Part shown: positions 1 through 13,370 of the stretch, piece after piece
Position numbering within the stretch: position 1 is the stretch's first letter
Layout: the number at the start of each line of letters is the position of its first letter
The notes under the pieces: model-generated
Told to the model about the DNA's origin: nothing
Databases searched by the model: none
Seen by the model: only the letters and a program-made list of their open reading frames with translations
From: a virus
Taxonomy: Duplodnaviria; Heunggongvirae; Uroviricota; Caudoviricetes
Strand: one strand, 5' to 3'
Virus record (IMG/VR): IMGVR_UViG_2526164628_000013
Length of the DNA: 13,370 bases
Program-made: the position numbers and the translations under genes

Positions 1-201
1 ATGCTGAACGATTTAGGCGTGGATCCGCATATTGTCGAACAACTCACCGCTCACCAGATGCCAGGGATGCAGCGAGTCTATAACCACTCCCGTTATCTCG
101 ATGCGAAACGTAATGCGCTGGACATGTGGACAGAGCGGTTAGAGATACTGGCGGGTACTCACAAAAACGTAACCACACTGCCAATAGCCAGAGAAATATA
201 A
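1..201 (+). CDS. int: Tyrosine integrase, C-terminal fragment (gene starts upstream of window)
   Basis: ORF 1..201 ends ...QRVYNHSRYLDAKRNALDMWTERLEIL, the pattern of a tyrosine recombinase C-terminus with the catalytic Tyr; followed by an AlpA-like gene as in P4/CP4-57-type islands. Partial, so family call is inference. Confidence 0.7.
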   Translation: MLNDLGVDPHIVEQLTAHQMPGMQRVYNHSRYLDAKRNALDMWTERLEILAGTHKNVTTLPIAREI

Positions 202-228
202 TTTTTTTTGCGATTTTTTAGAACTGAC

Positions 229-288
229 ACAACGTGAAACAACGAGACACCACGACGAACAACGGCGAACAATCTGGAACAAACTTGA
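229..288. repeat. Six tandem 10-bp A/C-rich repeats (ACAACGTGAA, ACAACGAGAC, ACCACGACGA, ACAACGGCGA, ACAATCTGGA, ACAAACTTGA)
   Basis: Read directly: ACAACG-like hexamer recurs at 229, 239, 249, 259, 269, 279, an exact 10-bp period, in the int-alpA intergenic region. Confidence 0.8.
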
Positions 289-433
289 TTAACATCTGAC
301 TGACACCCTAAAAAGTTGATTTTCAGTCGTTTTACTGGCTTTTTGTACATTGGCGAATCACTCTTAAAAACATGTAAAAAAGGCGTAAAAACAGAATTTT
401 ATGCCTTTGCACCACAATGAATTAAAAGAGTTT

Positions 434-462
434 TTATTCTCATTACCACACTTCTGTAAAAT
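434..462 (+). promoter_or_regulatory. Candidate sigma70-like promoter upstream of alpA (TTATTC -17 bp- TAAAAT)
   Basis: -35-like TTATTC at 434-439 and -10-like TAAAAT at 457-462 with a 17-bp spacer; motif match only. Confidence 0.2.
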
Positions 463-568
463 GACCGCCGCCAGTGTTTGCCATTCCATAAACACCCTGA
501 CACAATCCGACGCACCACAACACAATAGGACACCAAATAACTCTTTAAGAAATATCAAAGGGGGAATT

Positions 569-757
569 GTGTTAAGCACAGATCGCTTTATACGTGAAAA
601 AGAATGTCAGCAACTTACAGGCCTGAGCCGTTCATGTCGGTACCGCCTGGAAAAAACCGGACAATTCCCATCACGGCGTAAGCTCGGCGGTCGTTCCGTT
701 GGCTGGTCTTTATCCGAAGTTCTGGCATGGAAGGAAAGCTGCGAGGCAGTTCACTAA
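569..757 (+). CDS. alpA: AlpA-family phage regulatory protein (winged-helix, Xis-like)
   Basis: C-terminal part of ORF 401..757 reads ...LTGLSRSCRYRLEKTGQFPSRRKLGGRSVGWSLSEVLAWKE, matching the AlpA pattern. GTG at 569 is preceded by SD AAAGGGG (557-564); this gives ~62 aa, typical AlpA size. The longer 401 start is judged an artefactual extension. Confidence 0.75.
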   Translation: MLSTDRFIREKECQQLTGLSRSCRYRLEKTGQFPSRRKLGGRSVGWSLSEVLAWKESCEAVH

Positions 758-809
758 TCAGGCTGGCGGCACACCGCCGCCACCCATCCACTAATACAGA
801 GATCTAACC

Positions 810-2000
810 ATGAATACTGGATATTCTCCCGAACAAGGGCGGGGCTTCGTTCGTCCTGAAAAACAGAATCTGCAAAATTTTGCCGAAATTATTCCGGTTA
901 TTTCCGGCCTTACTGGCGGGAGTGAAACCAATATTGTTAACGCCAGAGCGTTGCAGATGTTTGATGATAAAAAGGGAGTAAATTTAACTTACACCCCTGA
1001 CGGCAATCAGAATATGAGCATTATCTCTGAGTCAGGTTTCTACAAACTAATAAAAACAAAAAGCGCCCCGTTCCCGGAGCGCCTTTGTGAACAATTAACC
1101 TACTGCGCAAAAAATGAATCTGAGCAGTGGGATTATATCAACCGTGTGGCGAAGCGCCACAATTGCCGGATAACAGGCAAAACAAAGGCCACCCGCTACG
1201 GTGGCCCCTCGACACAAGCTACACGTTATCCCCAACGCATGAGCATCACCAACAATGCCACATTTGCGGCTGGTGGGCAATGTGATCAGTCAGATTTGGT
1301 TCGTTCCAAGGTTTGCAACGAGAGCTTTTTCCTGTGCTCTTTAAGGAATTTCTCAAGAGCAAAAGCACATGGCGCGAATCTTTCTGATTCATGCTCTATC
1401 TTTCTGCGCCGTCTTTTCCGTGCCGGTGATAATGTTTTGGTCAATTCTTTATCGGTCATTGTGTTGTCCTGCATAGCAATGCGCCGTAATACCTTACACC
1501 ACGGCGCTGATGGTGATTACTCTGGTTCTTTGGTCTTGCGACGCTGGAGTTCTTCGCGTGCAACGGTGACAAGCTGCCCGATTTCTTCCGCTGCTTTGAT
1601 GCCGATTTGTTCGACCTTAGCCAGGGCATCCAGTGACGACACAAGGGGATTTTCTCCGCTGCCTTCTGCTTGGCGGCGGGCTATTTCTCCGCGCATGGCG
1701 GTTACGATAAATCCGGCATTGCTTTCGCCGTCCAGCTTAACGGATTCCATCCCTTGCATAACATCTAGTGGGACTCTGACAGTTGTCAGTTGTGATTTTG
1801 CGTTTTTGTTAGCCGTTGCCATTTCTGAAACTCCTAATCATCGGTGTGTTTCAGTATACACAAAAAAAGAAATACAAAAAGCCTTGACGTGTGTTTCATG
1901 CGCTCATAACATGAAACACACCAAAAGAATTGTTGAAATACAAAGAGCAACGCCCCGCAGTGCCGGAAACACATACGGGGCGTCTAACCACCAACGATAG
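810..2000 (+). CDS. Hypothetical ORF; only the first ~155 codons (810..~1280) look protein-like, the rest is an open frame antisense to minus-strand genes and an operator region
   Basis: 396-codon open frame. N-terminal part has balanced composition; from ~1280 the translation becomes S/L/R/C-rich, typical of antisense reading, and it overlaps the RHH-like gene (1517..1822) which has a strong SD. Weak SD at 810. Confidence 0.3.
   Translation: MNTGYSPEQGRGFVRPEKQNLQNFAEIIPVISGLTGGSETNIVNARALQMFDDKKGVNLTYTPDGNQNMSIISESGFYKLIKTKSAPFPERLCEQLTYCAKNESEQWDYINRVAKRHNCRITGKTKATRYGGPSTQATRYPQRMSITNNATFAAGGQCDQSDLVRSKVCNESFFLCSLRNFSRAKAHGANLSDSCSIFLRRLFRAGDNVLVNSLSVIVLSCIAMRRNTLHHGADGDYSGSLVLRRWSSSRATVTSCPISSAALMPICSTLARASSDDTRGFSPLPSAWRRAISPRMAVTINPALLSPSSLTDSIPCITSSGTLTVVSCDFAFLLAVAISETPNHRCVSVYTKKEIQKALTCVSCAHNMKHTKRIVEIQRATPRSAGNTYGASNHQR
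1286..1459 (-). CDS. Small basic hypothetical protein (MTDKELTKTLSPARKRRRRKIEHES...)
   Basis: Minus-strand ORF downstream of the RHH-like gene; internal ATG at 1459 has AGGA 7 nt upstream; K/R-rich. Could be spurious. Confidence 0.3.
   Translation of the reverse strand: MTDKELTKTLSPARKRRRRKIEHESERFAPCAFALEKFLKEHRKKLSLQTLERTKSD
1517..1822 (-). CDS. Putative small DNA-binding regulator (possibly ribbon-helix-helix), divergent from the rightward operon
   Basis: 101-aa ORF with protein-like composition; ATG at 1822 preceded on the minus strand by AGGAG with 8-nt spacer; its upstream region carries the palindromic operator at 1889-1921. Fold assignment is inference. Confidence 0.6.
   Translation of the reverse strand: MATANKNAKSQLTTVRVPLDVMQGMESVKLDGESNAGFIVTAMRGEIARRQAEGSGENPLVSSLDALAKVEQIGIKAAEEIGQLVTVAREELQRRKTKEPE
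1884..1921 (+). promoter_or_regulatory. Rightward promoter (TTGACG -17- TAACAT) overlapped by a perfect 12-bp inverted repeat operator
   Basis: TTGACG 1884-1889, TAACAT 1907-1912. GTGTGTTTCATG (1889-1900) and CATGAAACACAC (1910-1921) are exact reverse complements with a 9-bp spacer; a third half-site GTGTGTTTCA lies at 1844-1853. Confidence 0.5.
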
Positions 2001-2019
2001 CAAGATTATCGAGGCTGCT

Positions 2020-2226
2020 ATGAGAAATCATACCATACACCCGCAAGGGCGGGACTCGCACAACCTGAATAAATACATCTGGCGTTTTATCGCCCTGAGT
2101 ACGGCACAACCGCGCGTGATTACCATTGAGGCCACCAGCGAACAGGAAGCCCGTCAGCAATCACCGGCTGGCTGCGTGATGGTATTCGCCGCCCGTATTC
2201 GTCAGGGGGTGCACCATGTGCAATAA
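2020..2226 (+). CDS. Small hypothetical protein, first gene of the rightward operon (weak resemblance to Icd/Ash-like proteins of P4-type islands, unverified)
   Basis: ATG 2020 preceded by GAGG (2011-2014); MRNHTIHPQGRDSHNLNKYIWRFIALSTAQPRVITIEATSEQEARQQSPAGCVMVFAARI... Family call from memory only. Confidence 0.45.
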   Translation: MRNHTIHPQGRDSHNLNKYIWRFIALSTAQPRVITIEATSEQEARQQSPAGCVMVFAARIRQGVHHVQ

Positions 2227-2476
2227 CACCCGTCCGGACGCAGCCGCCGAAGCAATCAAAACACTGATTGATGCGCTGATTGATATTTCTGTTATCGCGG
2301 ACAGGGCGCATAAGCACGCTACCAGTGAAACAGAATATGCCGGGGCTTTCGTTCCTCATTCGCTGGCGGTTATGCAACTTAGTGCGGATATGGCGCTGAA
2401 TGAGGCCAAAGCCATCCTGATTGCTGATTGTGAAAATGGGGGGGGGTTATGCGTGATGATCGTTTTAATTCCCTGA
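2216..2476 (+). CDS. Hypothetical small protein
   Basis: ATG 2216 with AGGGGG SD 6 nt upstream; start overlaps the preceding stop; ends across the G9 tract. Confidence 0.4.
   Translation: MCNNTRPDAAAEAIKTLIDALIDISVIADRAHKHATSETEYAGAFVPHSLAVMQLSADMALNEAKAILIADCENGGGLCVMIVLIP
2438..2446. repeat. G9 homopolymer tract at the junction of two overlapping ORFs
   Basis: Nine consecutive G read directly at 2438-2446; encodes GGG in ORF 2216..2476 and sits 2 nt upstream of ATG 2449. Confidence 0.9.
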
Positions 2477-2682
2477 AACAGGAATTTTCCGGCGTTCCTG
2501 ATGATGCGGCTGATGCGCTTTCGTCAATGCCAGAGCTTATTAGAGCGGCTTTTTTCTTACTTTCCACGAGAGAATATAAATCAACGGGGCTTGATGTACT
2601 GAATATCGCCGCCGATTATGCGGAATATGTGGCAGAGGCGCGTTACAGAAGAAAATTTCCTGAGGATGTAAGCCATGCGTGA
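2449..2682 (+). CDS. Hypothetical small protein
   Basis: ATG 2449 immediately downstream of the G-rich tract (SD-like); overlaps neighbours at both ends. Confidence 0.4.
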   Translation: MRDDRFNSLKQEFSGVPDDAADALSSMPELIRAAFFLLSTREYKSTGLDVLNIAADYAEYVAEARYRRKFPEDVSHA

Positions 2683-2908
2683 TATTTACCACGAAACAAT
2701 AGACCGCGCATTTCTTGCACTTTCTCACAGTGAAAACATGCTGGAAATATTGCGCATATGGCTTGAAACACTTGGCGACAATGAACGCGACAAACAAAAA
2801 TCAAGAATTGCCACGGCATTAATAACGCTTCTTGAGCCTGTAATAATGGAACTGCAAGAAATAGATCTATTGCACGACAGATATAAAGAACAGCACACCG
2901 GAGAATAA
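2675..2908 (+). CDS. Hypothetical small protein (predicted helical)
   Basis: ATG 2675 overlaps the previous stop; GAGGA 8 nt upstream. Confidence 0.4.
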   Translation: MRDIYHETIDRAFLALSHSENMLEILRIWLETLGDNERDKQKSRIATALITLLEPVIMELQEIDLLHDRYKEQHTGE

Positions 2909-2913
2909 AAATA

Positions 2914-3213
2914 ATGAAACTTAAATATTCTGGCTTAACTGCCAGTGGCAACACTCACCCTAAATTTACGCGCGGTGATATTTACCGCGACCAGTACGGC
3001 GGCACGGTAATGATTAAGGGCGTGGAAGAACGGCGCGTAATCTACCGCCGTGAAGGTTACGAATATGATTGCGTGATGCCTGTTTATCAGTTCCGGTGTG
3101 ATTTTTCTCTGGTACAGACCGCGCCGCATAACGTGCCCACCAGCAACGCCAGGGCACGGGCAAACATCCAGAAGCTGAAAACCATGATTAACGGATTCAG
3201 GGGCAAGAAATGA
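2914..3213 (+). CDS. Hypothetical small protein immediately upstream of and overlapping the replication helicase gene
   Basis: ATG 2914; stop overlaps ATG 3210 of the next gene (ATGA-type coupling). Confidence 0.45.
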   Translation: MKLKYSGLTASGNTHPKFTRGDIYRDQYGGTVMIKGVEERRVIYRREGYEYDCVMPVYQFRCDFSLVQTAPHNVPTSNARARANIQKLKTMINGFRGKK

Positions 3214-4625
3214 AAAGCGCACCGAACTTAAAAAAACAGCCTTACGACAAAATGACCGAAGTCATTATTTTTGCGGGTAGTGATGCCTGGGCGCACGCGA
3301 AACAATGGCAGGAGCAGGACGGGCGACTTGCTGGCGACAATGTTCCGCCTGTATGGCTGGGAGACAGCCAGCTTGACGAACTGGCAGGCCTGAAAATTAT
3401 CGACGATGGTCGCTATTGTGTCCGACTGTACAAGGCAGGCCACATCAAGCCGTCAAATATTAATGCCATCGGGCAAAAGCTGGCGGCGGCAGGTGTACGG
3501 GATGCGAATTATTACCCTGAGGGAATGCACAGTCAGAAGCTGGAGAACTGGCACGACTACCTGCAACGGATCCGCGAACAGGCAGAGCGCGGGGAAATAC
3601 TTACTGACGAGCAATACAGCCAGCGAAAAACCACGCTACCAATGAGCATTGGATCTGCAGGGTACGACACACAGCTTGATTATGTCGTTAAGGGCGTGAT
3701 TCCGGCTAATTCATTGTGCAGCACATACGGCGCGAGCGGTTCCTATAAATCGTTCCTCGCGTGTTCCTGGGCGTGTCATGTTGCCACGGGTCGCCACTGG
3801 GGAGGTCGCAGGGTGGCGCATGGTTCGGTGATGTATGTTGTCGGTGAAGGTGGCATTGGTGTCCCCCGCCGTATCAAGGCATGGGAAATCGTTAATGATG
3901 AACGGGTGAAAAATCTGTACCTGGTAAACCGCCCGATTTTTCCTGCAGCCCAGTTTGATGTTGATGAAATGGTTATCGCATCCCGCCAGGTTGAACGGGA
4001 AACGGGTAAACCGGTACGCATGATTATTCTGGATACGCTGGCGCGTTGCTTTGGCGGTAATGATGAAAATGACGCGCGGGATATGGGGGCGTTTATCCGT
4101 GGATGTGACGAACTGAAACGACGCACAGGGGCCACGGTGCTGGTGGTTCACCATTCCGGCAAGGATGAAACAAAAGGGGCGCGTGGTTCCAGTGCATTTC
4201 GTGCATCTCTGGACGCTGAGTACCGGATCCGCCGCGAAGGCGCGGACAGTGAGGCCCTGGTTATCTCCTGCACCAAAATGAAGGACGCGGAGGAACTGAA
4301 AGAGGCTGCATATGATTTACGTGTGGTGGAGCTTTTTACCGACGCTGACAAGGAGTTAATCACGTCGCTGGTGGTTGTGGATAAGCCGCGCCCACCCGTT
4401 GAACTGGAGCGCATCGAGGAGGCCGGAAACAAGACGGAGAATCACGCCGCACTATGGGGCTGTATCCGGTCACGCACACAGCGCGGCGATAAATGCACTA
4501 TCCCGTTGTTGCGCGATGATATGAAAAAGCTGGGGTATGAGATGAAAAACTTCCGGCGCTGGCTGTACAAGCTGGAAAGAGACGGCGTTATCGCTATTGA
4601 CGGTGATGATGTGCGCCCACTGTAA
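3210..4625 (+). CDS. Replication protein: RepA/DnaB-like P-loop helicase (satellite/PICI pri-rep-like) with C-terminal winged-helix-like tail
   Basis: 471 aa. Walker A-like YGASGSYKS, RecA-fold signatures MIILDTLARCFGG and VLVVHHSGKD; basic C-terminal ~60 aa plausibly DNA-binding. Iteron array begins at its stop codon. Confidence 0.75.
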   Translation: MKSAPNLKKQPYDKMTEVIIFAGSDAWAHAKQWQEQDGRLAGDNVPPVWLGDSQLDELAGLKIIDDGRYCVRLYKAGHIKPSNINAIGQKLAAAGVRDANYYPEGMHSQKLENWHDYLQRIREQAERGEILTDEQYSQRKTTLPMSIGSAGYDTQLDYVVKGVIPANSLCSTYGASGSYKSFLACSWACHVATGRHWGGRRVAHGSVMYVVGEGGIGVPRRIKAWEIVNDERVKNLYLVNRPIFPAAQFDVDEMVIASRQVERETGKPVRMIILDTLARCFGGNDENDARDMGAFIRGCDELKRRTGATVLVVHHSGKDETKGARGSSAFRASLDAEYRIRREGADSEALVISCTKMKDAEELKEAAYDLRVVELFTDADKELITSLVVVDKPRPPVELERIEEAGNKTENHAALWGCIRSRTQRGDKCTIPLLRDDMKKLGYEMKNFRRWLYKLERDGVIAIDGDDVRPL

Positions 4626-4826
4626 AAAGTGAGGCGCAAAAGTGAGGGGATAGCAGGAACTGAACAAAAAGCAACCGCGCCCCTCACTTTTCAATCTGTA
4701 TATAGGCTCAAAAGTGAGGAATAAAAAACACATTGAAAAACAACATATTAGAATCACAAAAAAACAAGGTTGGAAATCATGTGGGGAGCTTAAAAAGTGA
4801 GGCGAAAAAGTGGGGAGTAGTGGGGA
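4625..4826. repeat. Iteron array, putative replication origin: AAAAGTGAGG direct repeats plus one inverted copy and an AT-rich stretch
   Basis: AAAAGTGAGG at 4625, 4638, 4710, 4793; variant AAAAGTGGGG at 4806; inverted copy CCTCACTTTT at 4682-4691; AT-rich 4720-4770. Lies directly after the helicase gene. Confidence 0.6.
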
Positions 4827-5078
4827 ATGACCAGAAAAAGCAGAGATAAAACAGCACCAAAATATCGCGCATTAGACATGACAGAGCACGCCTTAAAGGT
4901 GGCAATCAGAACGATAGACCGCCACGCCGGAGAAGGATACGCGAAAGCGCATCCCGAACTGATAAGCGCATTCATGACCACGGCGGCGGCAAATTTTGCC
5001 ACACTGACAGAACGGGAGATTGCCGAAGCGGAACAGGTGACAACCATCAACGTTAAAACCGGAGAGCAGACAGCATGA
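4827..5078 (+). CDS. Hypothetical protein between ori and ssb
   Basis: 83-aa ORF; stop overlaps ATG of the SSB-like gene (ATGA at 5075-5078). Confidence 0.45.
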   Translation: MTRKSRDKTAPKYRALDMTEHALKVAIRTIDRHAGEGYAKAHPELISAFMTTAAANFATLTEREIAEAEQVTTINVKTGEQTA

Positions 5079-5497
5079 CAGCACAGATAGCGGCTTACGG
5101 GCGGCTGGTGGCTGACCCGCAGTTAAAGACCACCAGCAAGGGTACACAAATGACGATGGCGAGTATGGCGGTCCCACTTCCGTGCAGCCAGGCAGATGAC
5201 GGAACGGCGACGATGTGGTTATCCGTCCTGGCGTTTGGCAGACAGGCCGAAGCACTGGCAAAGCACCGCAAGGGTGAACTCCTGAGCGTGGCGGGTAACA
5301 TGCAGGTAAGCCAGTGGACAGGCCAGAACGGCGAAACGCGGCGGGGCTGGCAGGTTATCGCAGACAGCGTAATCAGTGCGCGAACGGCGCGACCGGGCGG
5401 CAAAAAAGGTCAGCAGGGGCAGGCCACTGACGCACTGAACAGGGCAAAACAACAGTCGGGGAATGATGATCCGTACGGCGATAATATACCGTTTTAA
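5075..5497 (+). CDS. ssb: Single-stranded DNA-binding protein-like (OB fold with acidic ...DDPYGDNIPF tail)
   Basis: 140 aa. N-terminal ~100 aa align by eye to E. coli SSB OB-fold segments (GRLVADPQL..., WLSVLAFGRQAEALAKHRKGELLSVAGNMQVSQWTGQNGETR...). C-terminus ends DNIPF, like the SSB DDDIPF tail. Confidence 0.65.
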   Translation: MTAQIAAYGRLVADPQLKTTSKGTQMTMASMAVPLPCSQADDGTATMWLSVLAFGRQAEALAKHRKGELLSVAGNMQVSQWTGQNGETRRGWQVIADSVISARTARPGGKKGQQGQATDALNRAKQQSGNDDPYGDNIPF

Positions 5498-5514
5498 ATT
5501 CTGCAAACAAAAAG

Positions 5515-5543
5515 ATGCCGGAAAAAAATAGATTTTCCGGCAT
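5515..5543. terminator. Perfect 11-bp stem hairpin (ATGCCGGAAAA / TTTTCCGGCAT, 7-nt loop) between replication and capsid modules
   Basis: Read directly. A U-tract follows the stem only on the minus-strand transcript; on the + strand an A-tract precedes it. Orientation ambiguous. Confidence 0.4.
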
Positions 5544-5714
5544 GCTACATAAATCCCGACCAAAGGAAGTAAATACATTAACACGAATTATCAGCACTGA
5601 AGTTGTCACGGCATATTTTATACAACATTGCACTTGGTTGCATGTATTCGCATAGCAGACATCGGTAATAGAATATATTCACAATTATTTGTAATGAATG
5701 TAAAGAGGATGAGT

Positions 5715-6755
5715 ATGGTTGATTTATATTCGCCTACACAGCTTGTGCAGGTGGCTAATGCTGAAGATGTGCAAAAAAAATTAAATGCGTTGTTTACCAG
5801 TTTGTTTTTCACTCGCTCGGTAATGTTTGAATCGAGAGACATTATTCTTGATACGATCGACGATCCAAATATCCCGATCGCGGCGTTTTGCTCTCCTATG
5901 GTGGGCAGTAAAGTTTCACGAGATGAGGGATACGAATCAAAAACAATTCGCCCTGGCTATATGAAACCGAAAAGCAGCATTGATCCAAATAAGTTAGCTG
6001 TGCGCCCTGCTGGTGTATCACCTGAACAATACAATGCTTTTGGGGCGCGTAATATTAAAGTTAAACAGGCGATTGTAAATCAGGCTAAAGCTATACGTGC
6101 ACGTATTGAATGGCTTGCTGTTCAGGCAATCACAACGGGGAAAAATATCATTGAGGGCGATGGTATTGAACGTTATGAACTGGACTGGAATATAAAACCA
6201 CAAAATATTATCACGCAGTCTGGCGGTGCTGAGTGGTCAGGTAAGGATAAAGAAACTTTTGATCCAAATGATGATATTGAGAGCTACGCAGAATTTAGTG
6301 AGGGCGTCACTAATATCATCATTATGGGCGGTAATGTATGGAAGAAATACCGTTCATTCAGAGCGATAAAAGAGGCTCTGGATACCCGCCGTGGTTCTAA
6401 TTCCGAACTGGAAACGGCCCTTAAAGACCTTGGTGATTCGGTGAGTTTTAAAGGGTATATGGGCGATGTTGCGATTGTTGTTTACAGCGGACGTTATACC
6501 GACGAGGACGGAACTGAAAAACATTTCCTTGATCCTGATTTGATGGTGCTTGGCAATACGGCTCTTCAGGGGATTGTCGCCTATGGCGGTATTCAGGATC
6601 CGGAGCTAACCCGAATGGGGCTGACTAAAGCCGAACTTGCACCGAAAAACTATATTGTGCCTGGTGATCCGGCTATTGAGTACGTACAAACGCACTCTGC
6701 ACCACAGCCAATACCGGCCCGCATCAATCGTTTTGTTACCGTTCGCATTGGCTAA
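5715..6755 (+). CDS. Major capsid protein, phage lambda gpE family
   Basis: Internal ATG 5715 with SD AAAGAGG (5702-5708). Long blocks match lambda gpE as recalled (NIITQSGGAEWSGKDKETFDPNDDIESYA..., AIKEALDTRRGSNSELETALKDLG..., YMGDVAIVVYSG..., MVLGNTA). About 346 aa. Confidence 0.85.
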   Translation: MVDLYSPTQLVQVANAEDVQKKLNALFTSLFFTRSVMFESRDIILDTIDDPNIPIAAFCSPMVGSKVSRDEGYESKTIRPGYMKPKSSIDPNKLAVRPAGVSPEQYNAFGARNIKVKQAIVNQAKAIRARIEWLAVQAITTGKNIIEGDGIERYELDWNIKPQNIITQSGGAEWSGKDKETFDPNDDIESYAEFSEGVTNIIIMGGNVWKKYRSFRAIKEALDTRRGSNSELETALKDLGDSVSFKGYMGDVAIVVYSGRYTDEDGTEKHFLDPDLMVLGNTALQGIVAYGGIQDPELTRMGLTKAELAPKNYIVPGDPAIEYVQTHSAPQPIPARINRFVTVRIG

Positions 6756-6764
6756 GGGGGAGCA

Positions 6765-6958
6765 ATGGCTACTCATTACACTGAACTCATGTCTGGCACT
6801 GAAGCACTGGTTACTACGCTGGGGATATTTTCAGCCAATAAAGGGGTAATACCTGCGTTTACGCCACTGATGCAGGAAGATGCAACTGGTGCGCTAGTGG
6901 TATGGGATGGAACGAGCGCAGGCAAAGCGGTTTATGTTTCCGCTGTACAAATCGACAC
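6765..6958 (+). pseudogene. Head decoration protein (lambda gpD-like), 3'-truncated by IS629
   Basis: SD AAGGGGGA then ATG 6765. ...AFTPLMQEDATGALVVWDGTSAGKAVYVSAVQ... resembles the lambda gpD core. Reading frame runs into the IS629 left end at 6959 after ~64 native codons (gpD is ~110 aa). Confidence 0.6.
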
Positions 6959-7012
6959 TGAACCGCCCCGGGAATCCTGGAGACTAAACTCCCTGAGAAA
7001 GAGGTAAACAGG

Positions 7013-7339
7013 ATGACTAAAAATACTCGTTTTTCCCCCGAAGTCCGTCAGAGGGCGATTCGTATGGTTCTGGAAAGTCAGGGCGAATATGACTCACAGT
7101 GGGCGGCAATTTGTTCCATTGCCCCAAAGATTGACTGTACACCGGAGACTCTGCGTGTCTGGGTACGCCAGCATGAGCGGGATACCGGAGGCGGTGATGG
7201 CGGGCTCACCACCGCTGAACGTCAGCGTCTGAAAGAGCTGGAACGTGAAAATCGTGAACTGCGCCGCAGTAACGATATCCTTCGCCAGGCTTCCGCTTAT
7301 TTTGCGAAGGCGGAGTTCGACCGCCTCTGGAAAAAGTGA
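7013..7339 (+). CDS. IS629 OrfA (transposase N-terminal/HTH component)
   Basis: [30 protein letters not shown]...[18 protein letters not shown], 108 aa. Confidence 0.85.
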
Positions 7340-8226
7340 TGCCACTGCTGGATAAGCTGCGTAAGCTGTACGGGGTCGGACCGGTATGCAGTGAACTACA
7401 TATTGCCCCGTCAACGTATTACCACTGTCAGCAACAGCGACATCATCCTGATAAACGCAGTGCCCGTGCGCAGCGCGATGACTGGCTGAAGAAAGAGATA
7501 CTGCGCGTATACGATGGGAATCATCAGGTATACGGTGTGCGTAAAGTCTGGCGTCAGTTGTTACGGGAAGGAATCAGGGTAGCCAGATGTACAGTGGCGC
7601 GCCTCATGGCGGTTATGGGACTTGCCGGTGTTCTCCGGGGTAAAAAGGTCCGCACTACCGTCAGCCGGAAAGCCGTTGCCGCAGGCGACCGCGTAAACCG
7701 TCAGTTTGTGGCAGAACGTCCTGACCAGTTGTGGGTGGCTGATTTTACTTACGTCAGCACATGGCAGGGGGTCGTCTATGTGGCGTTCATCATTGATGTG
7801 TTTGCCGGATACATCGTGGGGTGGCGGGTCTCATCGTCTATGGAAACGACATTCGTGCTGGATGCTCTGGAGCAGGCGTTATGGGCCCGTCGACCGTCCG
7901 GCACAGTCCATCACAGTGATAAAGGTTCTCAGTATGTATCGCTGGCCTACACACAGCGGCTTAAGGAAGCCGGATTACTGGCATCAACAGGAAGTACTGG
8001 TGACTCGTATGACAACGCGATGGCGGAGAGCATCAATGGCCTTTACAAAGCGGAGGTAATACACCGTAAGAGCTGGAAAAACCGGACAGAAGTGGAACTG
8101 GCCACACTCACGTGGGTGGACTGGTATAACAATCGACGATTGCTGGAAAGGCTGGGCCATATCCCACCGGCAGAAGCAGAAAAAGCTTATTATGCTTCCA
8201 TCGGAAACGATGATCTGGCAGCCTGA
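7336..8226 (+). CDS. IS629 OrfB (transposase catalytic component; -1 frame relative to orfA)
   Basis: 296 aa with rve-type integrase core (…[14 protein letters not shown]…[10 protein letters not shown]…[10 protein letters not shown]…); overlaps orfA end, typical of IS3-family frameshift organisation. Confidence 0.85.
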
Positions 8227-8280
8227 GTTCACAGATAAAACACTCTCCAGGAAACCCGGGGCGGTTCACAAAGTGTTTTT

Positions 8281-9831
8281 TCATCGCACACCGCCTTTTT
8301 CCTGATGAAAGCGGCAACGAGCAATCACGGATTGAATTTCAAATTGTGTGGTTTCATGGATTGAAATAAGTGGATTGCGGGCGTTACCAACACTGTCTGA
8401 AATGGAAATCAATTCATCGACTTCTTTAACTACACTCTCCAGCACCGCCTGATGGTCACCATCAGTAAAGGGGCGGAAATACAGGCAACCGTAGCAGCAG
8501 CGTACTTCACTGAATGGGCATTTGCCATCATCTCTGGAGCAACCGCCAATCCCATCATGCAACTCATCACCGATTATGCCGACCACGCGCTGGTCTTGCC
8601 ATTTCGTTGAAGAGGTCAGTTCACCAGTCAACATCATAGCCACCATGTTTTGCCATACCGGATTGATACCCAATGCTTTGGCTCGAATCAGTGCCAGTGC
8701 AGGCGTCGCCAGAATGTAATACTTGGCAACAGTAAGGGAGCTATGTCCCAGAATATGCGCAATTTCCTCGGCGCTGACCCCTTGCATAGCCAGTGAATGC
8801 CCCACGTTGTGGCGCAAGTCGGTCGGGGTAATGGTTGGCAAAGCCGCTTCGCCACGCTTTACGGCTGCCTGATAATCTGGCGGACTGAAACAGAGGAAGG
8901 CCTTGTTAATCGCTCTGGACACATTAAACGGTGCAGAGTTACTAAATTCAAATAGCTTGCCATCAGGTTTTAGTTGCGCTCGCTCGATATAGTGCCTAAT
9001 CAACGCGCCGATTTCAGCTGGAATCGCCAAAAACAGACGTTCAGTCGTTACGTGCCGCTGTTTGGCGTAAGGAAGGAGTAAGCTATATCGTATTAATCCG
9101 GTTTCGGAGTTTCGGGTATCAATACGTAAATCTTTTACCGCCAGCTTGGCCAGTTGTACCGGTCGGGCACCGGTGACATACGTCAGTCCCAGAATTACTG
9201 CATCTCGCATGGTGTTCAGACTGTAGTTTTCGCCATACCGAATCGCCACAGCCATTTCAAACAAGCCTTTACTGATCATGTTTTTTTCGAGGGGATCCAG
9301 AACATGATCAATTTCCTGATAGATTCCCCAGTCATGGGAGTGCGGGCGAGGGATGAATTCGAGGTCTTCATAATCTTCGAGGGTAAAACCAGGGAATGCT
9401 TCGGTACAGAGGATTTTTAGGCCGAAAATGATAAAGTAGAAATATTGAGGTTTAATTTCCTGAGTTTCGAGGTAATCTTTCAACACCGTAAAAGTGAAAG
9501 CAGATTTGCTTATGCAATGATCAGTTGCCAAAGACCACGCATGGAGTACCCCAGGAACCTGAGCTGGACACTTGGCAGATGCATAATGGAAGCAAATATA
9601 TTTGATTAATTGGTTGCTGATTTTATCCTGACGAAAGTGGGCATAGCAGCGGCTTCCTGAATAATCGAATACCCAACTGTCACTTGTTGAGCTGATATAT
9701 TTGTCATCAAAATGATCTGCCGATTTAAGATAAATACTAACTGGTATATTAACCTTTAAAATACTCTCAACAAATACAGGTGTGTAAATGTTGCTGTTCG
9801 ACGCATTTAACTGTTTATTGATTCGACTCAT
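8281..9831 (-). CDS. Large tyrosine recombinase (~516 aa) with extended N-terminal domain and ~135-aa C-terminal extension carrying a Cys cluster
   Basis: Box I-like LGLTYVTGARPVQLAKL, box II-like TDLRHNVGH and LGHSSLTVAKYY (catalytic Tyr). Start at ATG 9831 (GGAG 5 nt upstream); in-frame ATGs also at 9846 and 9855. Stop lies 12 bp from the IS629 right end. Confidence 0.7.
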   Translation of the reverse strand: MSRINKQLNASNSNIYTPVFVESILKVNIPVSIYLKSADHFDDKYISSTSDSWVFDYSGSRCYAHFRQDKISNQLIKYICFHYASAKCPAQVPGVLHAWSLATDHCISKSAFTFTVLKDYLETQEIKPQYFYFIIFGLKILCTEAFPGFTLEDYEDLEFIPRPHSHDWGIYQEIDHVLDPLEKNMISKGLFEMAVAIRYGENYSLNTMRDAVILGLTYVTGARPVQLAKLAVKDLRIDTRNSETGLIRYSLLLPYAKQRHVTTERLFLAIPAEIGALIRHYIERAQLKPDGKLFEFSNSAPFNVSRAINKAFLCFSPPDYQAAVKRGEAALPTITPTDLRHNVGHSLAMQGVSAEEIAHILGHSSLTVAKYYILATPALALIRAKALGINPVWQNMVAMMLTGELTSSTKWQDQRVVGIIGDELHDGIGGCSRDDGKCPFSEVRCCYGCLYFRPFTDGDHQAVLESVVKEVDELISISDSVGNARNPLISIHETTQFEIQSVIARCRFHQEKGGVR

Positions 9832-10237
9832 ATGCACTCCATTCATCGCATACATGGGAAAAGGTTGATTTCAGGGCTTCGTTATCAATCACAATTCGCT
9901 GAAGATTGGCCGTATTAGCCTGCTGAGATAGAAATCTTTTAGCGTAAAGATCAGGCATATGGCTATTGTGACTCCAACCGCCAAGTAGCCGTAATTCATC
10001 CTTGGCTTCATCCATCAATCCAACGATAGAAAAGTCTATGGCTGCCAAGTGTGAGTTGGCCTTAATTTTTTGAAGTTTATCACGATAAATACGTTGAAGT
10101 GTTAAATAAGCCCAAGTATGCCGCGTTATATGAGGCGAGATGCTTTCAATGGCATCATAATATTCATCTTTTTTATATTCAGGATACTGCACACTCATAA
10201 TGTCATCAATACGGGTAAAGATATCATAGACTGCATG

Positions 10238-10242
10238 GTATG
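10238..10242. repeat. IS2 target-site duplication, left copy (GTATG)
   Basis: GTATG immediately left of the IS2 end at 10243; identical to 11573-11577. Confidence 0.8.
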
Positions 10243-10333
10243 TAGACTGGCCCCCTGAATCTCCAGACAACCAATATCACTTAAATAAGTGATAGTCTTA
10301 ATACTAGTTTTTAGACTAGTCATTGGAGAGCAG

Positions 10334-10663
10334 ATGATTGATGTCTTAGGACCGGAGAAACGCAGACGGCGTACTACACAGGAAAAGATCGCTATTGTTC
10401 AGCAGAGTTTTGAACCGGGAATGACGGTCTCCCTTGTTGCCCGGCAACACGGTGTGGCAGCCAGCCAGTTATTTCTCTGGCGCAAGCAATACCAGGAGGG
10501 AAGTCTTACTGCTGTGGCCGCAGGAGAGCAGGTCGTTCCTGCCTCTGAACTTGCTGCTGCCATGAAGCAGATTAAAGAACTCCAGCGCCTGCTCGGCAAA
10601 AAACGATGGAAAATGAACTCCTTAAAGAAGCCGTTGAATACGGGCGTGCAAAAAAGTGGATAG
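10334..10663 (+). CDS. insC: IS2 OrfA (InsC), apparently frameshifted in this copy
   Basis: [18 protein letters not shown]...LQRLLGKK matches InsC, then the frame diverges (…[19 protein letters not shown]) while the expected InsC C-terminus [31 protein letters not shown] is encoded in the +1 frame from 10603. A-run at 10598-10603 is 6 A. Confidence 0.75.
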
Positions 10664-11561
10664 CGCACGCGCCCTTATTGCCCGGGGATGGGGAGTAAGC
10701 TTAGTCAGCCGTTGTCTCCGGGTGTCGCGTGCGCAGTTGCACGTAATTCTCAGACGAACCGATGACTGGAAAGATGGTCGCCGCAGCCGTCACTCAGATG
10801 ATACGGATGTGCTTCTCCGTATACACCATGTTATCGGAGAGCTGCCCACGTATGGTTATCGTCGGGTATGGGCGCTGCTTCGCAGACAGGCCGAACTTGA
10901 TGGTATGCCTGCGATCAATGCCAAACGTGTTTACCGGATCATGCGCCAGAATGCGCTGTTGCTTGAGCGAAAAACCGCTGTACCGCCATCGAAACGGGCA
11001 CATACTGGCAAAGTGGCCGTGAAAGAAAGCAATCAACGATGGTGCTCTGACGGGTTCGAGTTCCGCTGTGATAACGGAGAAAAACTGCGAGTCACGTTCG
11101 CGCTGGACTGCTGTGACCGTGAGGCACTGCACTGGGCAGTCACTACGGGCGGCTTCGACAGTGAAACAGTACAGGACGTAATGCTGGGAGCGGTGGAACG
11201 CCGCTTCGGCAACGAGCTTCCGGCGTCTCCAGTAGAGTGGCTGACGGATAATGGTTCATGCTACCGGGCTAATGAAACACGGCAGTTTGCCCGGATGTTG
11301 GGGCTTGAACCGAAGAACACGGCGGTGCGGAGTCCGGAGAGTAACGGCATAGCAGAGAGCTTCGTGAAAACGATAAAGCGTGACTACATCAGTATCATGC
11401 CTAAACCAGACGGGTTAACGGCAGCAAAGAACCTTGCAGAGGCGTTCGAGCATTATAACGAATGGCATCCGCATAGTGCACTGGGTTATCGCTCGCCACG
11501 GGAATATCTGCGGCAGCAGGCCAGTAATGGGTTAAGTGATAACAGGTGTCTGGAAATATAG
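10656..11561 (+). CDS. insD: IS2 OrfB (InsD transposase catalytic component)
   Basis: 301 aa, [34 protein letters not shown]... matches InsD as recalled; GTG start just after the A6G slippery motif (10650-10656). Confidence 0.85.
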
Positions 11562-11572
11562 GGGCAAATCCA

Positions 11573-11577
11573 GTATG
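11573..11577. repeat. IS2 target-site duplication, right copy (GTATG)
   Basis: GTATG immediately right of the IS2 end at 11572. Confidence 0.8.
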
Positions 11578-12727
11578 ACAGTGGCGGATGTAGTCTTTGG
11601 GTGGAAGTGAACAGAAAACTATGGGAGGCTTGAGGGCGGATTTTATGGATATATATATTTAGAAAATGAAAGTCCAGTTTATCTAATGCCAGCACCCGGT
11701 TTGCATAAACATTTTTTAATGAAGGCAATCTTTTTCGTTGATCCGAAACGTCGTCATCTACTGTGGTCACAATCAGGCTGAACTGATCCCCTCGGAGATT
11801 TGGTTTGATCGAATGACACTCCAAAAGCAGTAATTCACTGACACGCAATCCGTAATTTAAAAGCAATCTGCAAATCAGAAAATTACGTAGCTGGATTTCA
11901 CCAGCGGGGAAGGGATTGAGTGGGTTTTTCTTTGAAATTGAACCGGGTGTAATGATTTGGTAAAAAGCCATGACCATCTCAGCAGTCAGACTTCGAAAGC
12001 GTTTATGGGTCGTGCCATTGTTCATCTGACGAGAATGGGTAAGAGTACGGAATTCTGCCTTATGTATCGATAAACGTCCCGTTAACTGCGTGGCAAGTCG
12101 TGTAAGCTCTTTAGGCGTGCCATCTATATATCTCGGCGAGATATACGTGTTAATCAAATATCTGATAAAACGAATAACCGAATGTACATGCCTGATATTT
12201 GTACAACGTTGAGGCGTGGTCTGCGTAGTAGACCTTATGGTTAACGCTGGTACATATAAATGCGTATTTTCCAGATAATGAAAAAAGGCTGTAAGTTCAT
12301 CAATGGCAATCTAAGATATATTAACGGATATAAAAGCGGCTGGCGCGTGTGAGTATCCATCAGTGCCCATAAACGCTGCCGTTGGTTGATATTGAGTTGT
12401 GTAAGTATGAACACGCGGCACTTAACCTTATCAATGGTGTGGATATGAACAAAGTAACCGACAAACATAACGTCCTGCAAGAAGAAGATAGAGGGGTAGG
12501 TAAGTGTATGATTAATCGTATCCTGTGGCCGGTTATGAACTAAATGACCGACGGACTAAATTTAACATAATATACATTATGCGCACCAATGGTAAGGATG
12601 GCAGAATCTGGCGGGAATCGTTGACACTGGCCGTCAACTGGCTACTATCGACAGTGATTCAAAATCATCCGTTTCTCCAAACGAATCAGAATCAAATGTC
12701 TGTCAGCAGTAAGTGAACGGCCTGACC

Positions 12728-12976
12728 TCACCAATCAGGCCTGTTCATCCAGTTAGTTGGTAAATCTGTACCTGATACACGAGAATCAAACACCACTTCT
12801 TCAGTGCCATCACCATGATGCCGGATAATCTGGTAACCGGATTGCGGGTTCTGGCTCTCAGCTTCATAAGCAGCCCGGAATGCTGGATCTTTGAGAAGCA
12901 TCACTTTCAGCTCCTGATGTGTCATGAATTTTTCCATGATAAGCCCCGATGAATGCTGCCGCGCCGAATCAGCCAT
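12728..12976 (-). CDS. Hypothetical small acidic protein (possible start at ATG 12937: MEKFMTHQELKVMLLKDPAFRAAYEAE...)
   Basis: 82-aa ORF; internal ATG at 12937 has a GGGG SD-like element ~10 nt upstream. No recognisable HTH after the N-terminal helix. Confidence 0.35.
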   Translation of the reverse strand: MADSARQHSSGLIMEKFMTHQELKVMLLKDPAFRAAYEAESQNPQSGYQIIRHHGDGTEEVVFDSRVSGTDLPTNWMNRPDW

Positions 12977-13098
12977 AACGCTGAAAATGGAAACAGTACG
13001 GCTTGGCCAACCCCGGACAGCAACAAAACAAGTTTTGTCACTGACCGGCGTTATCTTTCAAAACAGACAGTTAACGATTTTTTGTCTGGTGTTTATGC

Positions 13099-13125
13099 GT
13101 GAAATTTCGTGCGTACGAAATTCAC
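13099..13125. repeat. Imperfect inverted repeat GTGAAATTTCGT-GCG-(T)ACGAAATTCAC overlapping the stop codon of ORF 13122..13370
   Basis: Read directly; arms match 11 of 12 positions; central CGTACG is itself palindromic. No flanking T-tract on either strand. Confidence 0.5.
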
Positions 13126-13370
13126 CACCAATAAACAAACGGACGATGACTGACCGGAAAAGCAATGCCGTCAGCATCATGACCACGCATTACCTGATTG
13201 AGAAGCCTTCTGACTTCACGACGCTCAGGCCTGGTCATCATCATATTGCGATACCAGGACGGCGATTTATCAAACCATCTGGCACAACTGGCAAAATGTG
13301 AACCTACACGACGATAAGACTTAAGGCGGCCACCGGGAAGTCGGTCACGCGCCTTATTTTTTACAGACAT
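13122..13370 (-). CDS. Hypothetical small basic protein (ATG coincides with the window edge; may extend beyond)
   Basis: 82-aa ORF, Arg/Lys-rich (MSVKNKARDRLPGGRLKSYRRVGSHFASCARWF...); family not recognised. Confidence 0.35.
   Translation of the reverse strand: MSVKNKARDRLPGGRLKSYRRVGSHFASCARWFDKSPSWYRNMMMTRPERREVRRLLNQVMRGHDADGIAFPVSHRPFVYWW

Follow-up and report, generated by a model that had tools for sequence, protein, structure and literature searches.

The window (the whole stretch of DNA analysed, 13,370 nucleotides) opens with the 3' end of a PICI tyrosine integrase gene (positions 1-201, + strand), the gene being cut by the edge of the window and not by a mutation. Positions 1-6958 are 99.97% identical to a locus of E. 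coli TW10590 (L001), where the complete integrase has 409 aa and possesses Arm-DNA-bind_3 and Phage_integrase domains. The gene alpA (569-757, + strand, the same direction as int) encodes an AlpA-family regulator/excisionase (Pfam Phage_AlpA, E 1.3e-17), annotated in TW10590 as a 62-aa HTH regulator (tblastn, 100%). A gene of the YlcI/YnfO family (1517-1822, - strand) was identified by a match to phrog_6522 (E 1e-63) and by the RefSeq annotation of the identical TW10590 gene. No other gene of the island points leftward, the rest lying on the + strand, and a homologue of it occupies the matching position in EcCICFT073, the prototype Gram-negative PICI (Fillol-Salom et al. 2018, PMC6092414; 2019, PMC6739421).

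The replication genes follow. A DUF4222 gene (2914-3213, + strand; Pfam DUF4222, E 2e-24), whose product is 92% identical to that of EcCICFT073, adjoins the replication gene on its upstream side, an arrangement that is conserved. The replication gene itself (3210-4625, + strand) encodes a RepA-family replicative helicase (Pfam AAA_25, E 3e-44; phrog_2850, E 8e-252). It lacks a primase domain and represents a variant in the pri-rep slot, where relatives carry a primase-helicase. A repeat search of the adjoining region (4625-4826) returned families D1-D5 and I1-I6, with approximately eight copies of AAAAGTGAGG in both orientations. These iterons are the predicted replication origin, located directly 3' of rep as is known for origins of Gram-negative PICIs. 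They are followed by a conserved 83-aa ORF (4827-5078, + strand; phrog_1231, E 8e-51), which also precedes ssb in PICI-type relatives, EcCICFT073 included, and by the gene of a single-strand DNA-binding protein, ssb (5075-5497, + strand; Pfam SSB, E 1e-15; phrog_44, E 8e-39). No tRNA was found in a scan of the window, and an Rfam scan of it returned nothing beyond the pseudoknot of an insertion sequence described below.

A reading of this DNA made from the sequence alone had placed a capsid gene 217 bp downstream of the replication module, and this distance is exact, as counted from the end of ssb at 5497. The gap contains a conserved TTGCAC/T repeat block, ATTGCACTTGGTTGCAT (5627-5674, + strand), which overlaps a promoter-like site (TTCGCA-16-TAGAAT, 5647-5674). 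The motif has a single occurrence in the window and none in 200 shuffles; among all PICIs of the window's type it is present once per locus, approximately 88 nt 5' of the capsid start, and it is kept in loci of Kluyvera and Kosakonia even though the surrounding intergenic DNA has diverged. It may thus be a regulated promoter of a capsid-decoration operon. A hairpin in the same gap (5515-5543) was considered as a + strand terminator and found unconvincing, because its T-tract occurs only on the minus strand.

The gene that follows (5715-6755, + strand; AAGAGGA directly ahead of its ATG) is a full-length major capsid gene of the phage lambda gpE family, encoding 346 aa, as identified by profile search and alignment. 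Pfam Phage_cap_E (PF03864) matches the protein with 143.2 bits (cut-off 22.9; E 1.3e-41), as does phrog_29, "major head protein" (E 9e-91). Lambda gpE aligns with it from end to end at 42% identity without large insertions or deletions. Phmmer matched it to PDB 3BQW (E 3e-121), which also matches the 351-aa product of c1499 of EcCICFT073 (55% identical to the window capsid), and to the cryo-EM chains of lambda gpE, 7VI9 and 7SJ5 (approximately 1e-77). In the former of these chains, residues 4-340 correspond to residues 5-345 of the window protein (E 2e-77), so that the solved gpE is covered over its full length. A 144-nt stretch of the gene shares 74% DNA identity with lambda E and is a putative mosaic piece common to the satellite capsid gene and lambda E.

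Beginning at 6765, after GGGGGAG, is a head-decoration gene of the gpD/SHP family (6765-6958, + strand), of which only the 5' 57% is present; identity to the TW10590 locus stops at 6958. The ORF of 80 aa that starts here consists of approximately 65 decoration codons and approximately 15 codons of read-through from the end of an IS629 element. The fragment is matched by phrog_49, "head decoration" (E 9e-14). Its score against Pfam HDPD (PF02924), 25.4 bits, lies under the cut-off of 29.1 because the fragment is truncated (approximately 65 of 113 codons are present). The intact protein of TW10590 (113 aa; gene of 342 nt) scores 56.2 bits, matches the solved gpD/SHP structures 1TD0 and 1C5E, and is 54% identical to its counterpart in EcCICFT073. 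The assignment of both genes in the sequence-only reading is therefore upheld by profile searches (Phage_cap_E, phrog_29, phrog_49 and, for the intact decoration protein, HDPD).

The decoration gene is cut at 6958/6959 by IS629/IS1203 (6959-8268, + strand), a member of the IS3 family foreign to the satellite, with HTH_Tnp_1 and rve transposase ORFs and an ALIL frameshift pseudoknot (7294-7410, 116 bits). Similarity to relatives free of the element ends at 6958, and neither a cosN site nor any sequence of the TW10590 island past this point was found in the window.

What lies beyond the decoration gene in an intact copy can be read from TW10590, in which the island is approximately 10.2 kb in length and is located between abgR and smrA. 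Its left part consists of int, alpA, ylcI, an icd-like gene, three hypothetical genes, the DUF4222 gene, RepA, the iterons, a hypothetical gene and ssb. Its right part consists of the capsid and decoration genes, an AlpA-like gene, a lambda-type cosN, a Nu1-like terS and a 93-aa ORF, after which smrA follows; from the decoration gene to the end of the island is about 2 kb. Direct repeats of 26 bp lie 10.2 kb apart, and the published att core of EcCIEC2733.1, ACATTATTAATATCGTGA, is present exactly at 6179-6196 of the locus. The 12-mer of lambda cosN, GGGCGGCGACCT, is found exactly between the AlpA-like gene and terS, with adjacent conserved bases also present. TerS is accepted by Pfam Phage_Nu1 and shares 37% identity with Nu1. 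The gene directly after the decoration gene (127 aa) belongs to the AlpA family (PDB 8C3T; Pfam Phage_AlpA); it was considered as an Rpp and this was rejected, Rpp occurring only as the 144-aa ORF of EcCICFT073. Portal, protease, connector, TerL, tail and lysis genes are absent from the 10.2-kb island.

Relatives of the capsid gene were examined at 87 loci, made up of seven PICI-type genome loci and 80 IMG/VR loci. The order SSB, capsid, decoration, AlpA-like gene was seen at all of them (7/7 and 80/80), usually with TerS next, and this compact layout spans Escherichia, Kluyvera, Cedecea and Kosakonia. In every case (87/87) the capsid and decoration genes are linked to the satellite replication module, and in the relatives without the insertion sequence they do not form part of a lambdoid head module. 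The intact islands (L001, L002 and L004-L007) and the 80 IMG/VR loci have no genes for portal, protease or connector, and neither annotation nor search gave a terminase large subunit (a homologue of lambda A or other) for the intact islands. Over the 3 kb that follow the capsid gene, homologues of lambda A, B or C are present in 0/80 of the IMG/VR relatives. Several islands interrupt the E gene of a lambdoid prophage (genome loci L002, L006 and L007 and 26/80 IMG/VR loci). In loci with a neighbouring lambdoid prophage, the island lies entire within that prophage's E gene, which differs from the capsid gene of the satellite. A recent origin of the satellite capsid gene from a helper was considered and rejected, because the satellite capsid is only approximately 42% identical to the interrupted E gene.

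It had been noted from the sequence that no portal, protease, scaffold or terminase gene precedes the capsid gene, and within the window this holds. The view that the layout is not lambdoid also stands: none of the genes Nu1-A-W-B-C/Nu3-D-E-FI-FII flanks the capsid gene, and intact loci of lambda and lambda-like prophages show the canonical Nu1-A-W-B-C-D-E order in 27/27 cases. The satellite shares with lambda D/E (PDB 7VI9, 1C5E) a full-length gpE homologue and a decoration homologue of the gpD/SHP fold, but differs in the reversed order of the two genes and in having no Nu1-A-W-B-C-Nu3 upstream. Although capsid followed by decoration is indeed the reverse of the D-E order of lambda, it is not unusual as had been supposed, since EcCICFT073 (c1499, c1500) and its relatives normally have it.

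EcCICFT073 (L004) has the order DUF4222, pri, hypothetical gene, SSB, capsid (351 aa), decoration, hypothetical gene, Rpp and hypothetical gene. The island resembles it in ylcI, the icd-like gene, DUF4222, rep, the 83-aa ORF, ssb, capsid and decoration, all of which occur in both in a unidirectional arrangement, and in a cos-proximal packaging-redirection gene followed by a 93-aa ORF (86% identical). The differences are a primase-helicase there and a RepA-type helicase in the window; Rpp (PDB 6HLK family, 144-aa ORF) there and a Nu1-like TerS in the intact relatives of the window; a 137-aa ORF there and an AlpA-family gene in these relatives; and an att site next to phoQ there but between abgR and smrA here, the window copy being truncated in addition. 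The lysR-smrA site is listed in the 2018 PICI catalogue with EcCIEC2733.1, of 10.5 kb (Fillol-Salom et al. 2018, Table S1). Compared by chromosomal site, exact att core and size (10.2-10.5 kb) alone, EcCIEC2733.1 agrees with the TW10590 island, whereas the window copy is without the right end. Helper-embedded PICIs (11capE type; PMC10111431) possess capsids 79-99% identical to that of the window and lie within the E gene of lambdoid prophages, whereas the island of the window is chromosomal (abgR-smrA) and its integrase is only about 45% identical to theirs. A capsid-protein homologue on a cos-type satellite is also known in Ccm of SaPIbov5.

We therefore read positions 1-6958, with a probability of roughly 0.9, as the left approximately 7 kb of a classical Gram-negative PICI truncated by an insertion sequence, which is not a capsid-forming PICI (cf-PICI) and never was. 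It shows features of the class as set out by Fillol-Salom et al. 2018 and the SatelliteFinder PICI model, namely an integrase on the left, AlpA, rightward genes, rep with iterons and a capsid component, the last being typical of enterobacterial PICIs; the intact TW10590 island also agrees with the class in its size (about 10-15 kb for PICIs) and in having no portal, connector, tail or lysis genes. It is read as a truncated member because cosN and TerS are absent here and present in the intact TW10590 island; the packaging feature TerS/Rpp plus cos is thus missing from the window and present in an island 99.97% identical to it. On the comparisons above, the island type is assigned to the lysR(abgR)-smrA site of E. 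coli, EcCIEC2733.1-like and syntenic with EcCICFT073. It is a sub-type of the EcCICFT073 family and not a copy of the prototype, because it carries a RepA-type helicase and no primase-helicase, and TerS where EcCICFT073 has Rpp. The gpE/gpD-like pair is the normal "capsid morphogenesis" component of classical PICIs and has already been described: a capsid gene is present in 21/29 reference Gram-negative PICIs (PMC10111431), and SatelliteFinder counts capsid morphogenesis among five core PICI components, with portal and connectors "forbidden" in its PICI model (PMC10085698).

The missing right end admits more than one explanation. No target-site duplication surrounds IS629, its flanks being CAC on the left and CAA on the right, and a simple insertion was rejected on this check; on that reading the right end of the element would run into AGCGAAAAAAACACAGG. 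TW10590 carries the same IS629 copy and right flank (an IS629-integrase junction) 197 kb away, with a CAA duplication of its own. Relative to TW10590, an IS-adjacent deletion of approximately 197 kb has most likely cost the window copy the 3' end of its decoration gene along with the AlpA-like gene, cos, terS and attR, leaving an immobile remnant; without cos and terS it cannot be packaged. Alternatively, the island may be intact in its source, with IS629 inserted in the decoration gene and the assembly mis-joined, at the IS repeat, to sequence lying right of a different IS629 copy, in which case the loss of cos and terS would be an assembly artefact and the class, a classical PICI, would be unchanged. 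The unpaired flanks and the distant junction with its own duplication are consistent with such a mis-join, as is the occurrence of the left junction, between decoration gene and IS629, in 0 of 5,426 complete E. coli genomes; complete genomes of this species that cover at least 80% of the window were likewise not found. However, a one-ended IS-adjacent deletion equally ends in one copy of the element lacking a duplication, and short-read mis-joins seldom extend across two whole IS elements, as this contig does (IS629 and IS2). Identical junctions over 10.3 kb also occur in one IMG/VR record (L059), the only other place where the left junction was seen, although this record possibly stems from the same assembly. 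A mis-join is accordingly regarded as unlikely.

The sequence-only reading had proposed a satellite that makes its own capsid, the rest of its morphogenesis module having been lost at the IS629 junction. The first part stands insofar as this is a satellite owning capsid and decoration genes, linked in 87/87 loci; a cf-PICI it is not, as portal, protease and TerL are lacking. It is very improbable that a full set of head and packaging genes (capsid, protease, portal, connectors, TerS and TerL) was once present and that IS629 removed all that lay beyond the decoration gene. The island does resemble the cf-PICI EcCIEDL933 (bioRxiv 10.1101/2022.09.08.507074) in its int-alpA-rep left half, directly after which the capsid gene lies, and in carrying a major capsid gene whose evolution is separate from that of phage capsids. 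This left half is common to cf-PICIs and classical PICIs. Cf-PICIs encode protease, portal, head-tail connectors, HNH, TerS and TerL and make their own small capsids, and of these genes only terS is found in the intact relatives of the window. Copies free of IS629, TW10590's among them, continue past the decoration gene with the AlpA-family gene, cos, terS, the 93-aa ORF and smrA; the lost part of the island thus amounts to about 1.7 kb and holds no head module. Portal, protease or TerL inside the island was found in 0/80 relatives and 0/7 genome loci, the intact island measures 10.2 kb as against 15.4 kb for EcCIEDL933, and trees of the capsid component separate PICIs and cfPICIs almost perfectly (PMC10085698). 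The other alternative raised at the outset, a decayed or rearranged lambdoid prophage in which E and D survive beside unrelated replication genes, could appeal to the families of the two proteins, to the 144-nt stretch resembling lambda E and to the two IS elements and unrelated recombinase genes nearby, but it is just as improbable and is rejected given a capsid only 42% identical to lambda E with no match of at least 60% among phage records, the recurrence of the layout in 87 loci of four genera with att repeats and purifying selection, and the position of islands, whole, within the different E gene of adjacent prophages.

For the classical PICI, a life cycle may be proposed from what is known of EcCICFT073-type PICIs. 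A lambda-like cos helper would induce alpA, and the island would excise and replicate at the iteron origin with its own helicase and SSB. Its TerS would then steer the TerL of the helper to the island cos, and concatemeric island DNA would be packaged into heads that need the portal, protease/scaffold and tails of the helper. In the intact island the capsid and decoration genes open a late packaging block together with the AlpA-like regulator, cosN, TerS and a small ORF.

The role of the capsid and decoration genes within this cycle bears on the whole family. Among 50,697 phage records none is 60% or more identical to the satellite capsid, the best reaching 41.8%. Capsid dN/dS is 0.046 against the FCI48 copy and 0.02-0.08 in the clade of the window type, where the decoration gene gives 0.04-0.11; a comparison of lambda with a Kluyvera prophage gives 0.07, similar to the satellite genes. 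The satellite-specific lineage, this strong purifying selection, the mosaic segment shared with lambda E and the conserved upstream motif argue that the genes are functional. Their products are most likely real structural proteins, and would assemble into helper-dependent heads or co-assemble with helper gpE. In EcCICFT073, with which induction and transduction experiments have been done, c1499 (capsid) and c1500 (decoration) were described, and deletion of either gave no phenotype (PMC6092414). The knock-outs covered few combinations of helper and host (PMC6092414), and full-text searches of the later literature gave no function for c1499 or c1500.

We tentatively raise the possibility that the gpE/gpD-like pair is no silent passenger but a satellite-specific structural module, whose proteins form the shells of transducing particles, or join in their assembly, with the helper providing portal and scaffold. 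The absence of any phage capsid more than 42% identical, purifying selection on both genes of the strength seen in phages, the retention of the decoration partner, the TTGCAC-repeat motif upstream and the co-inheritance of the AlpA-like regulator lend support to this idea.

The locus itself is a satellite of an ordinary kind, already catalogued in E. coli, that has been disabled by an IS629-associated rearrangement, and is properly annotated as a truncated PICI, neither a cf-PICI nor a cryptic prophage. Interest rests with the family-wide capsid and decoration genes and not with the window copy, and the intact relatives in TW10590 and KSC1031, whose islands are 99.9-100% identical, are better material for testing them. 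If the proposed structural role is true, such islands would occupy an intermediate, "partly capsid-forming" position between the classical and the capsid-forming type.

The locus in the window is a truncated classical Gram-negative phage-inducible chromosomal island (PICI) of the RepA-helicase and TerS sub-type, located at the abgR-smrA site. Its capsid-decoration arrangement was correctly observed and is already described. The major capsid gene (5715-6755, plus strand) starts with an ATG after AAGAGGA, 217 bp beyond the end of ssb (5497), and encodes 346 amino acids. Profile searches matched its product to Pfam Phage_cap_E (E-value 1.3e-41; 143 bits, cut-off 22.9) and PHROG 29 'major head protein' (E-value 9e-91), while phmmer matched it to a 'putative capsid protein of prophage' (PDB accession no. 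3BQW; E-value 3e-121) and to the cryo-EM chains of lambda gpE (about 1e-77), to which it is 42% identical with an end-to-end alignment. The decoration gene follows from 6765 on the same strand and is truncated to approximately 65 codons. These match PHROG 49 'head decoration' (E-value 9e-14) and score 25.4 bits against Pfam HDPD, under its cut-off of 29.1 because of the truncation; the intact orthologue of Escherichia coli TW10590 (113 amino acids) reaches 56.2 bits, shares 40% identity with gpD and matches the gpD and SHP crystal structures. The sequence-only reading was thus right, on ORFs, profile matches and the 217-bp gap, about the position of both genes and their capsid-then-decoration order, and also in stating that no portal, protease, scaffold or terminase gene precedes the capsid gene.

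Similarity to relatives stops at 6958, where IS629 begins (6959-8268, with its ALIL frameshift pseudoknot at 7294-7410). Up to this point the window is 99.97% identical to the TW10590 chromosome, the only length difference across the 6,958 bp being a 2-nt indel that alters how a small hypothetical gene (2216-2476) terminates at its 3' end (86 amino acids in the window, 80 in TW10590). Beyond 6958, comparison with TW10590 found no island sequence in the window, and no cosN was found in it. The right junction of IS629 and all rightward sequence occur in TW10590 in the same orientation, 197 kb from the island (window 6959-13370; TW10590 region 3,797,735-3,809,915). The IS629 copy there is flanked by a CAA duplication; that of the window has no target-site duplication (CAC left, CAA right). 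Since TW10590 carries both sides of the junction 197 kb apart, the window corresponds to a TW10590-like genome lacking the 197,010 bp between a point within the decoration gene and the left edge of that IS629 copy, a pattern that would be expected of an IS-adjacent deletion. A mis-join of the assembly through IS629 could also have placed these sequences together: the decoration-IS629 junction is absent from the complete E. coli genomes searched, and the single IMG/VR record found to share it, 99.99% identical over window 159-10495, may derive from this very assembly. Such a mis-join seems improbable, and it would leave the classification unchanged. With an authentic join, the island is missing cos, terS and attR as well as the AlpA-like gene and the 3' part of its decoration gene, and it cannot be packaged or excised in the normal way. 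To the right of IS629 are two tandem tyrosine recombinase genes (8281-9855, and 9815-10242 plus 11573-12157), the second split by an IS2 (10243-11572, 5-bp target duplication) that is absent from the otherwise identical TW10590. In TW10590 these genes have GspD-secretin and Zot-family genes as neighbours, an association suggestive of a filamentous-prophage-like element.

The intact, IS-free island of TW10590 lies between abgR and smrA, where a 26-bp direct repeat brackets 10.2 kb. It consists of int, alpA, ylcI/ynfO (leftward), an icd-like gene, three small ORFs, DUF4222, RepA helicase, an 83-aa ORF, ssb, capsid (1041 nt) and decoration (342 nt) genes, followed by a 127-aa AlpA-family gene, a 200-bp gap containing cos, a Nu1-like terS (180 aa) and a 93-aa ORF. 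The gap holds the exact lambda cosN 12-mer GGGCGGCGACCT, then sequence alignable with the first ~50 lambda bases, and TerS clears the Pfam Phage_Nu1 threshold and shares 37% identity with Nu1. This second AlpA-family gene, between the decoration gene and cos (14519-14902 of the TW10590 locus, L001; PDB accession no. 8C3T, E-value 1.6e-10), has an unrelated 137-aa ORF in its place in EcCICFT073, the prototype Gram-negative PICI. EcCICFT073 otherwise has the same order, a 351-aa capsid gene and then a 111-aa decoration gene, with products 55% and 54% identical to those of the window, respectively. The ~760 bp from alpA to the leftward ylcI (window 757-1517; L001 8156-8916) hold no RefSeq gene, and a 396-aa plus-strand ORF at 810-2000, overlapping ylcI, is probably spurious.

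A 10.5-kb PICI at lysR-smrA, EcCIEC2733.1, with att core ACATTATTAATATCGTGA, has been reported (Fillol-Salom et al. 2018, Table S1, PMC6092414). A capsid gene is present in 21 of 29 reference Gram-negative PICIs (PMC10111431), and 'capsid morphogenesis' is one of the five core PICI components of SatelliteFinder, for which portal and connector genes are the forbidden markers dividing PICI from cfPICI; the capsid-component trees of the two separate almost perfectly (PMC10085698). Capsid-forming PICIs are defined by capsid, protease, portal, connectors, HNH, TerS and TerL over ~15 kb (bioRxiv 10.1101/2022.09.08.507074). When the locus was compared with this definition, the intact, 99.97%-identical island proved to lack portal, protease, scaffold and connector genes, TerL, and all tail and lysis genes. 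Identity as a capsid-forming satellite was therefore rejected, and with it the proposal that the rest of a head module had been lost at IS629.

Capsid relatives were drawn from one genome per species and from IMG/VR, and their neighbourhoods were classed by tblastn with TW10590, CFT073 and lambda proteins. All seven PICI-type loci (window, TW10590, FCI48, CFT073, Kluyvera, Cedecea and Kosakonia) carry rep, capsid, decoration and AlpA-like genes (the 137-aa ORF in CFT073; the window copy ends beforehand), with TerS usually next. All 80 IMG/VR loci whose capsid shares at least 98% identity show ssb, capsid and decoration, then the AlpA-like gene (79 loci) and in many TerS, and in none does a homologue of lambda A, B or C occur in the 3 kb after the capsid gene. 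The order Nu1-A-W-B-C-D-E-FI-FII was found in 27 of 27 intact lambda-like prophage or lambda loci. These layouts make capsid-then-decoration the signature order of the satellite lineage, with no rearrangement involved; the readings as an anomalous reversal of lambda order and as a rearranged prophage remnant were both rejected. Island copies at three genome loci (L002, 5661-17731; L006 and L007, about 2500-14500) and 26 of the 80 IMG/VR loci are inserted within the E gene of lambdoid prophages, the helper-embedded PICI configuration already published (PMC10111431), and a few others sit upstream of prophage gene C. Many short, low-coverage contigs (L008-L023 and L039-L053) are 100% identical to lambda head genes although their assemblies belong to such unrelated taxa as Kitasatospora, Chromatium, Paenibacillus, Bradyrhizobium and Akkermansia; they have the look of contaminating lambda DNA, not of real prophages.

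Among 50,697 phage records no capsid match reached 60% identity (best 41.8%), and in helper-embedded loci the satellite capsid is only ~42% identical to the interrupted helper E gene. Recent capture of the capsid gene was rejected on these values and, judged by sequence, the capsid is that of an old satellite lineage. The gene is mosaic: segment 6250-6520 (approximately residues 181-270) is 53-70% identical to lambda gpE and just 43-67% to the EcCICFT073 capsid, whereas outside it identity is 13-40% with lambda and as much as 80% with EcCICFT073. At the DNA level, 144 nt (6350-6492) share 74% identity with lambda E. The mosaic is suggestive of a tract of old recombination with a helper capsid gene.

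A conserved block, ATTGCACTNNNTTGCAY, precedes the capsid start by ~88 nt in each of the window-type islands, even in genera whose surrounding spacer has diverged, and overlaps a promoter-like site. Motif ATTGCACTTGGTTGCAT (5627-5643, block 5627-5674) is followed by a promoter-like site, TTCGCA-16-TAGAAT. Every window-type PICI has the motif, those of Kluyvera and Kosakonia among them, with a variant in Cedecea, and EcCICFT073 lacks it. Its presence goes with that of the AlpA-like gene 3' of the decoration gene, and it may act as operator and promoter for a late operon of the capsid, decoration and AlpA-like genes. A perfect 11-bp hairpin (ATGCCGGAAAA...TTTTCCGGCAT, 5515-5543) just 3' of ssb resembles an intrinsic terminator on the minus strand only (T-tract), where no minus-strand gene ends.

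Between TW10590 and FCI48, an unsaturated pair, dN/dS is 0.046 for the capsid gene and 0.084 for the decoration gene; across genera it is 0.02-0.11, comparable to lambda versus a Kluyvera prophage (0.07). Decoration proteins are useful solely on an assembled, expanded shell, and here the decoration protein has been kept alongside the capsid. Its retention, the low dN/dS, the separate lineage and the conserved upstream block are evidence that both proteins are functional. The favoured guess is that both become part of particles, by themselves or together with helper gpE. Null phenotypes published for EcCICFT073 capsid/decoration deletions (PMC6092414) count against necessity, and we therefore rate this structural reading at only about 25%.

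The island encodes an integrase, AlpA, a RepA-type helicase with DUF4222 and SSB, and has an origin (4625-4826) of ~8 AAAAGTGAGG iterons; intact copies add a lambda-type cos and their own Nu1-like TerS. By analogy with EcCICFT073-type PICIs, a lambda-like cos helper would induce alpA, upon which the island would excise and replicate. Its TerS would then recruit helper TerL to the island cos, and island concatemers would fill heads reliant on helper portal, protease/scaffold and tails.
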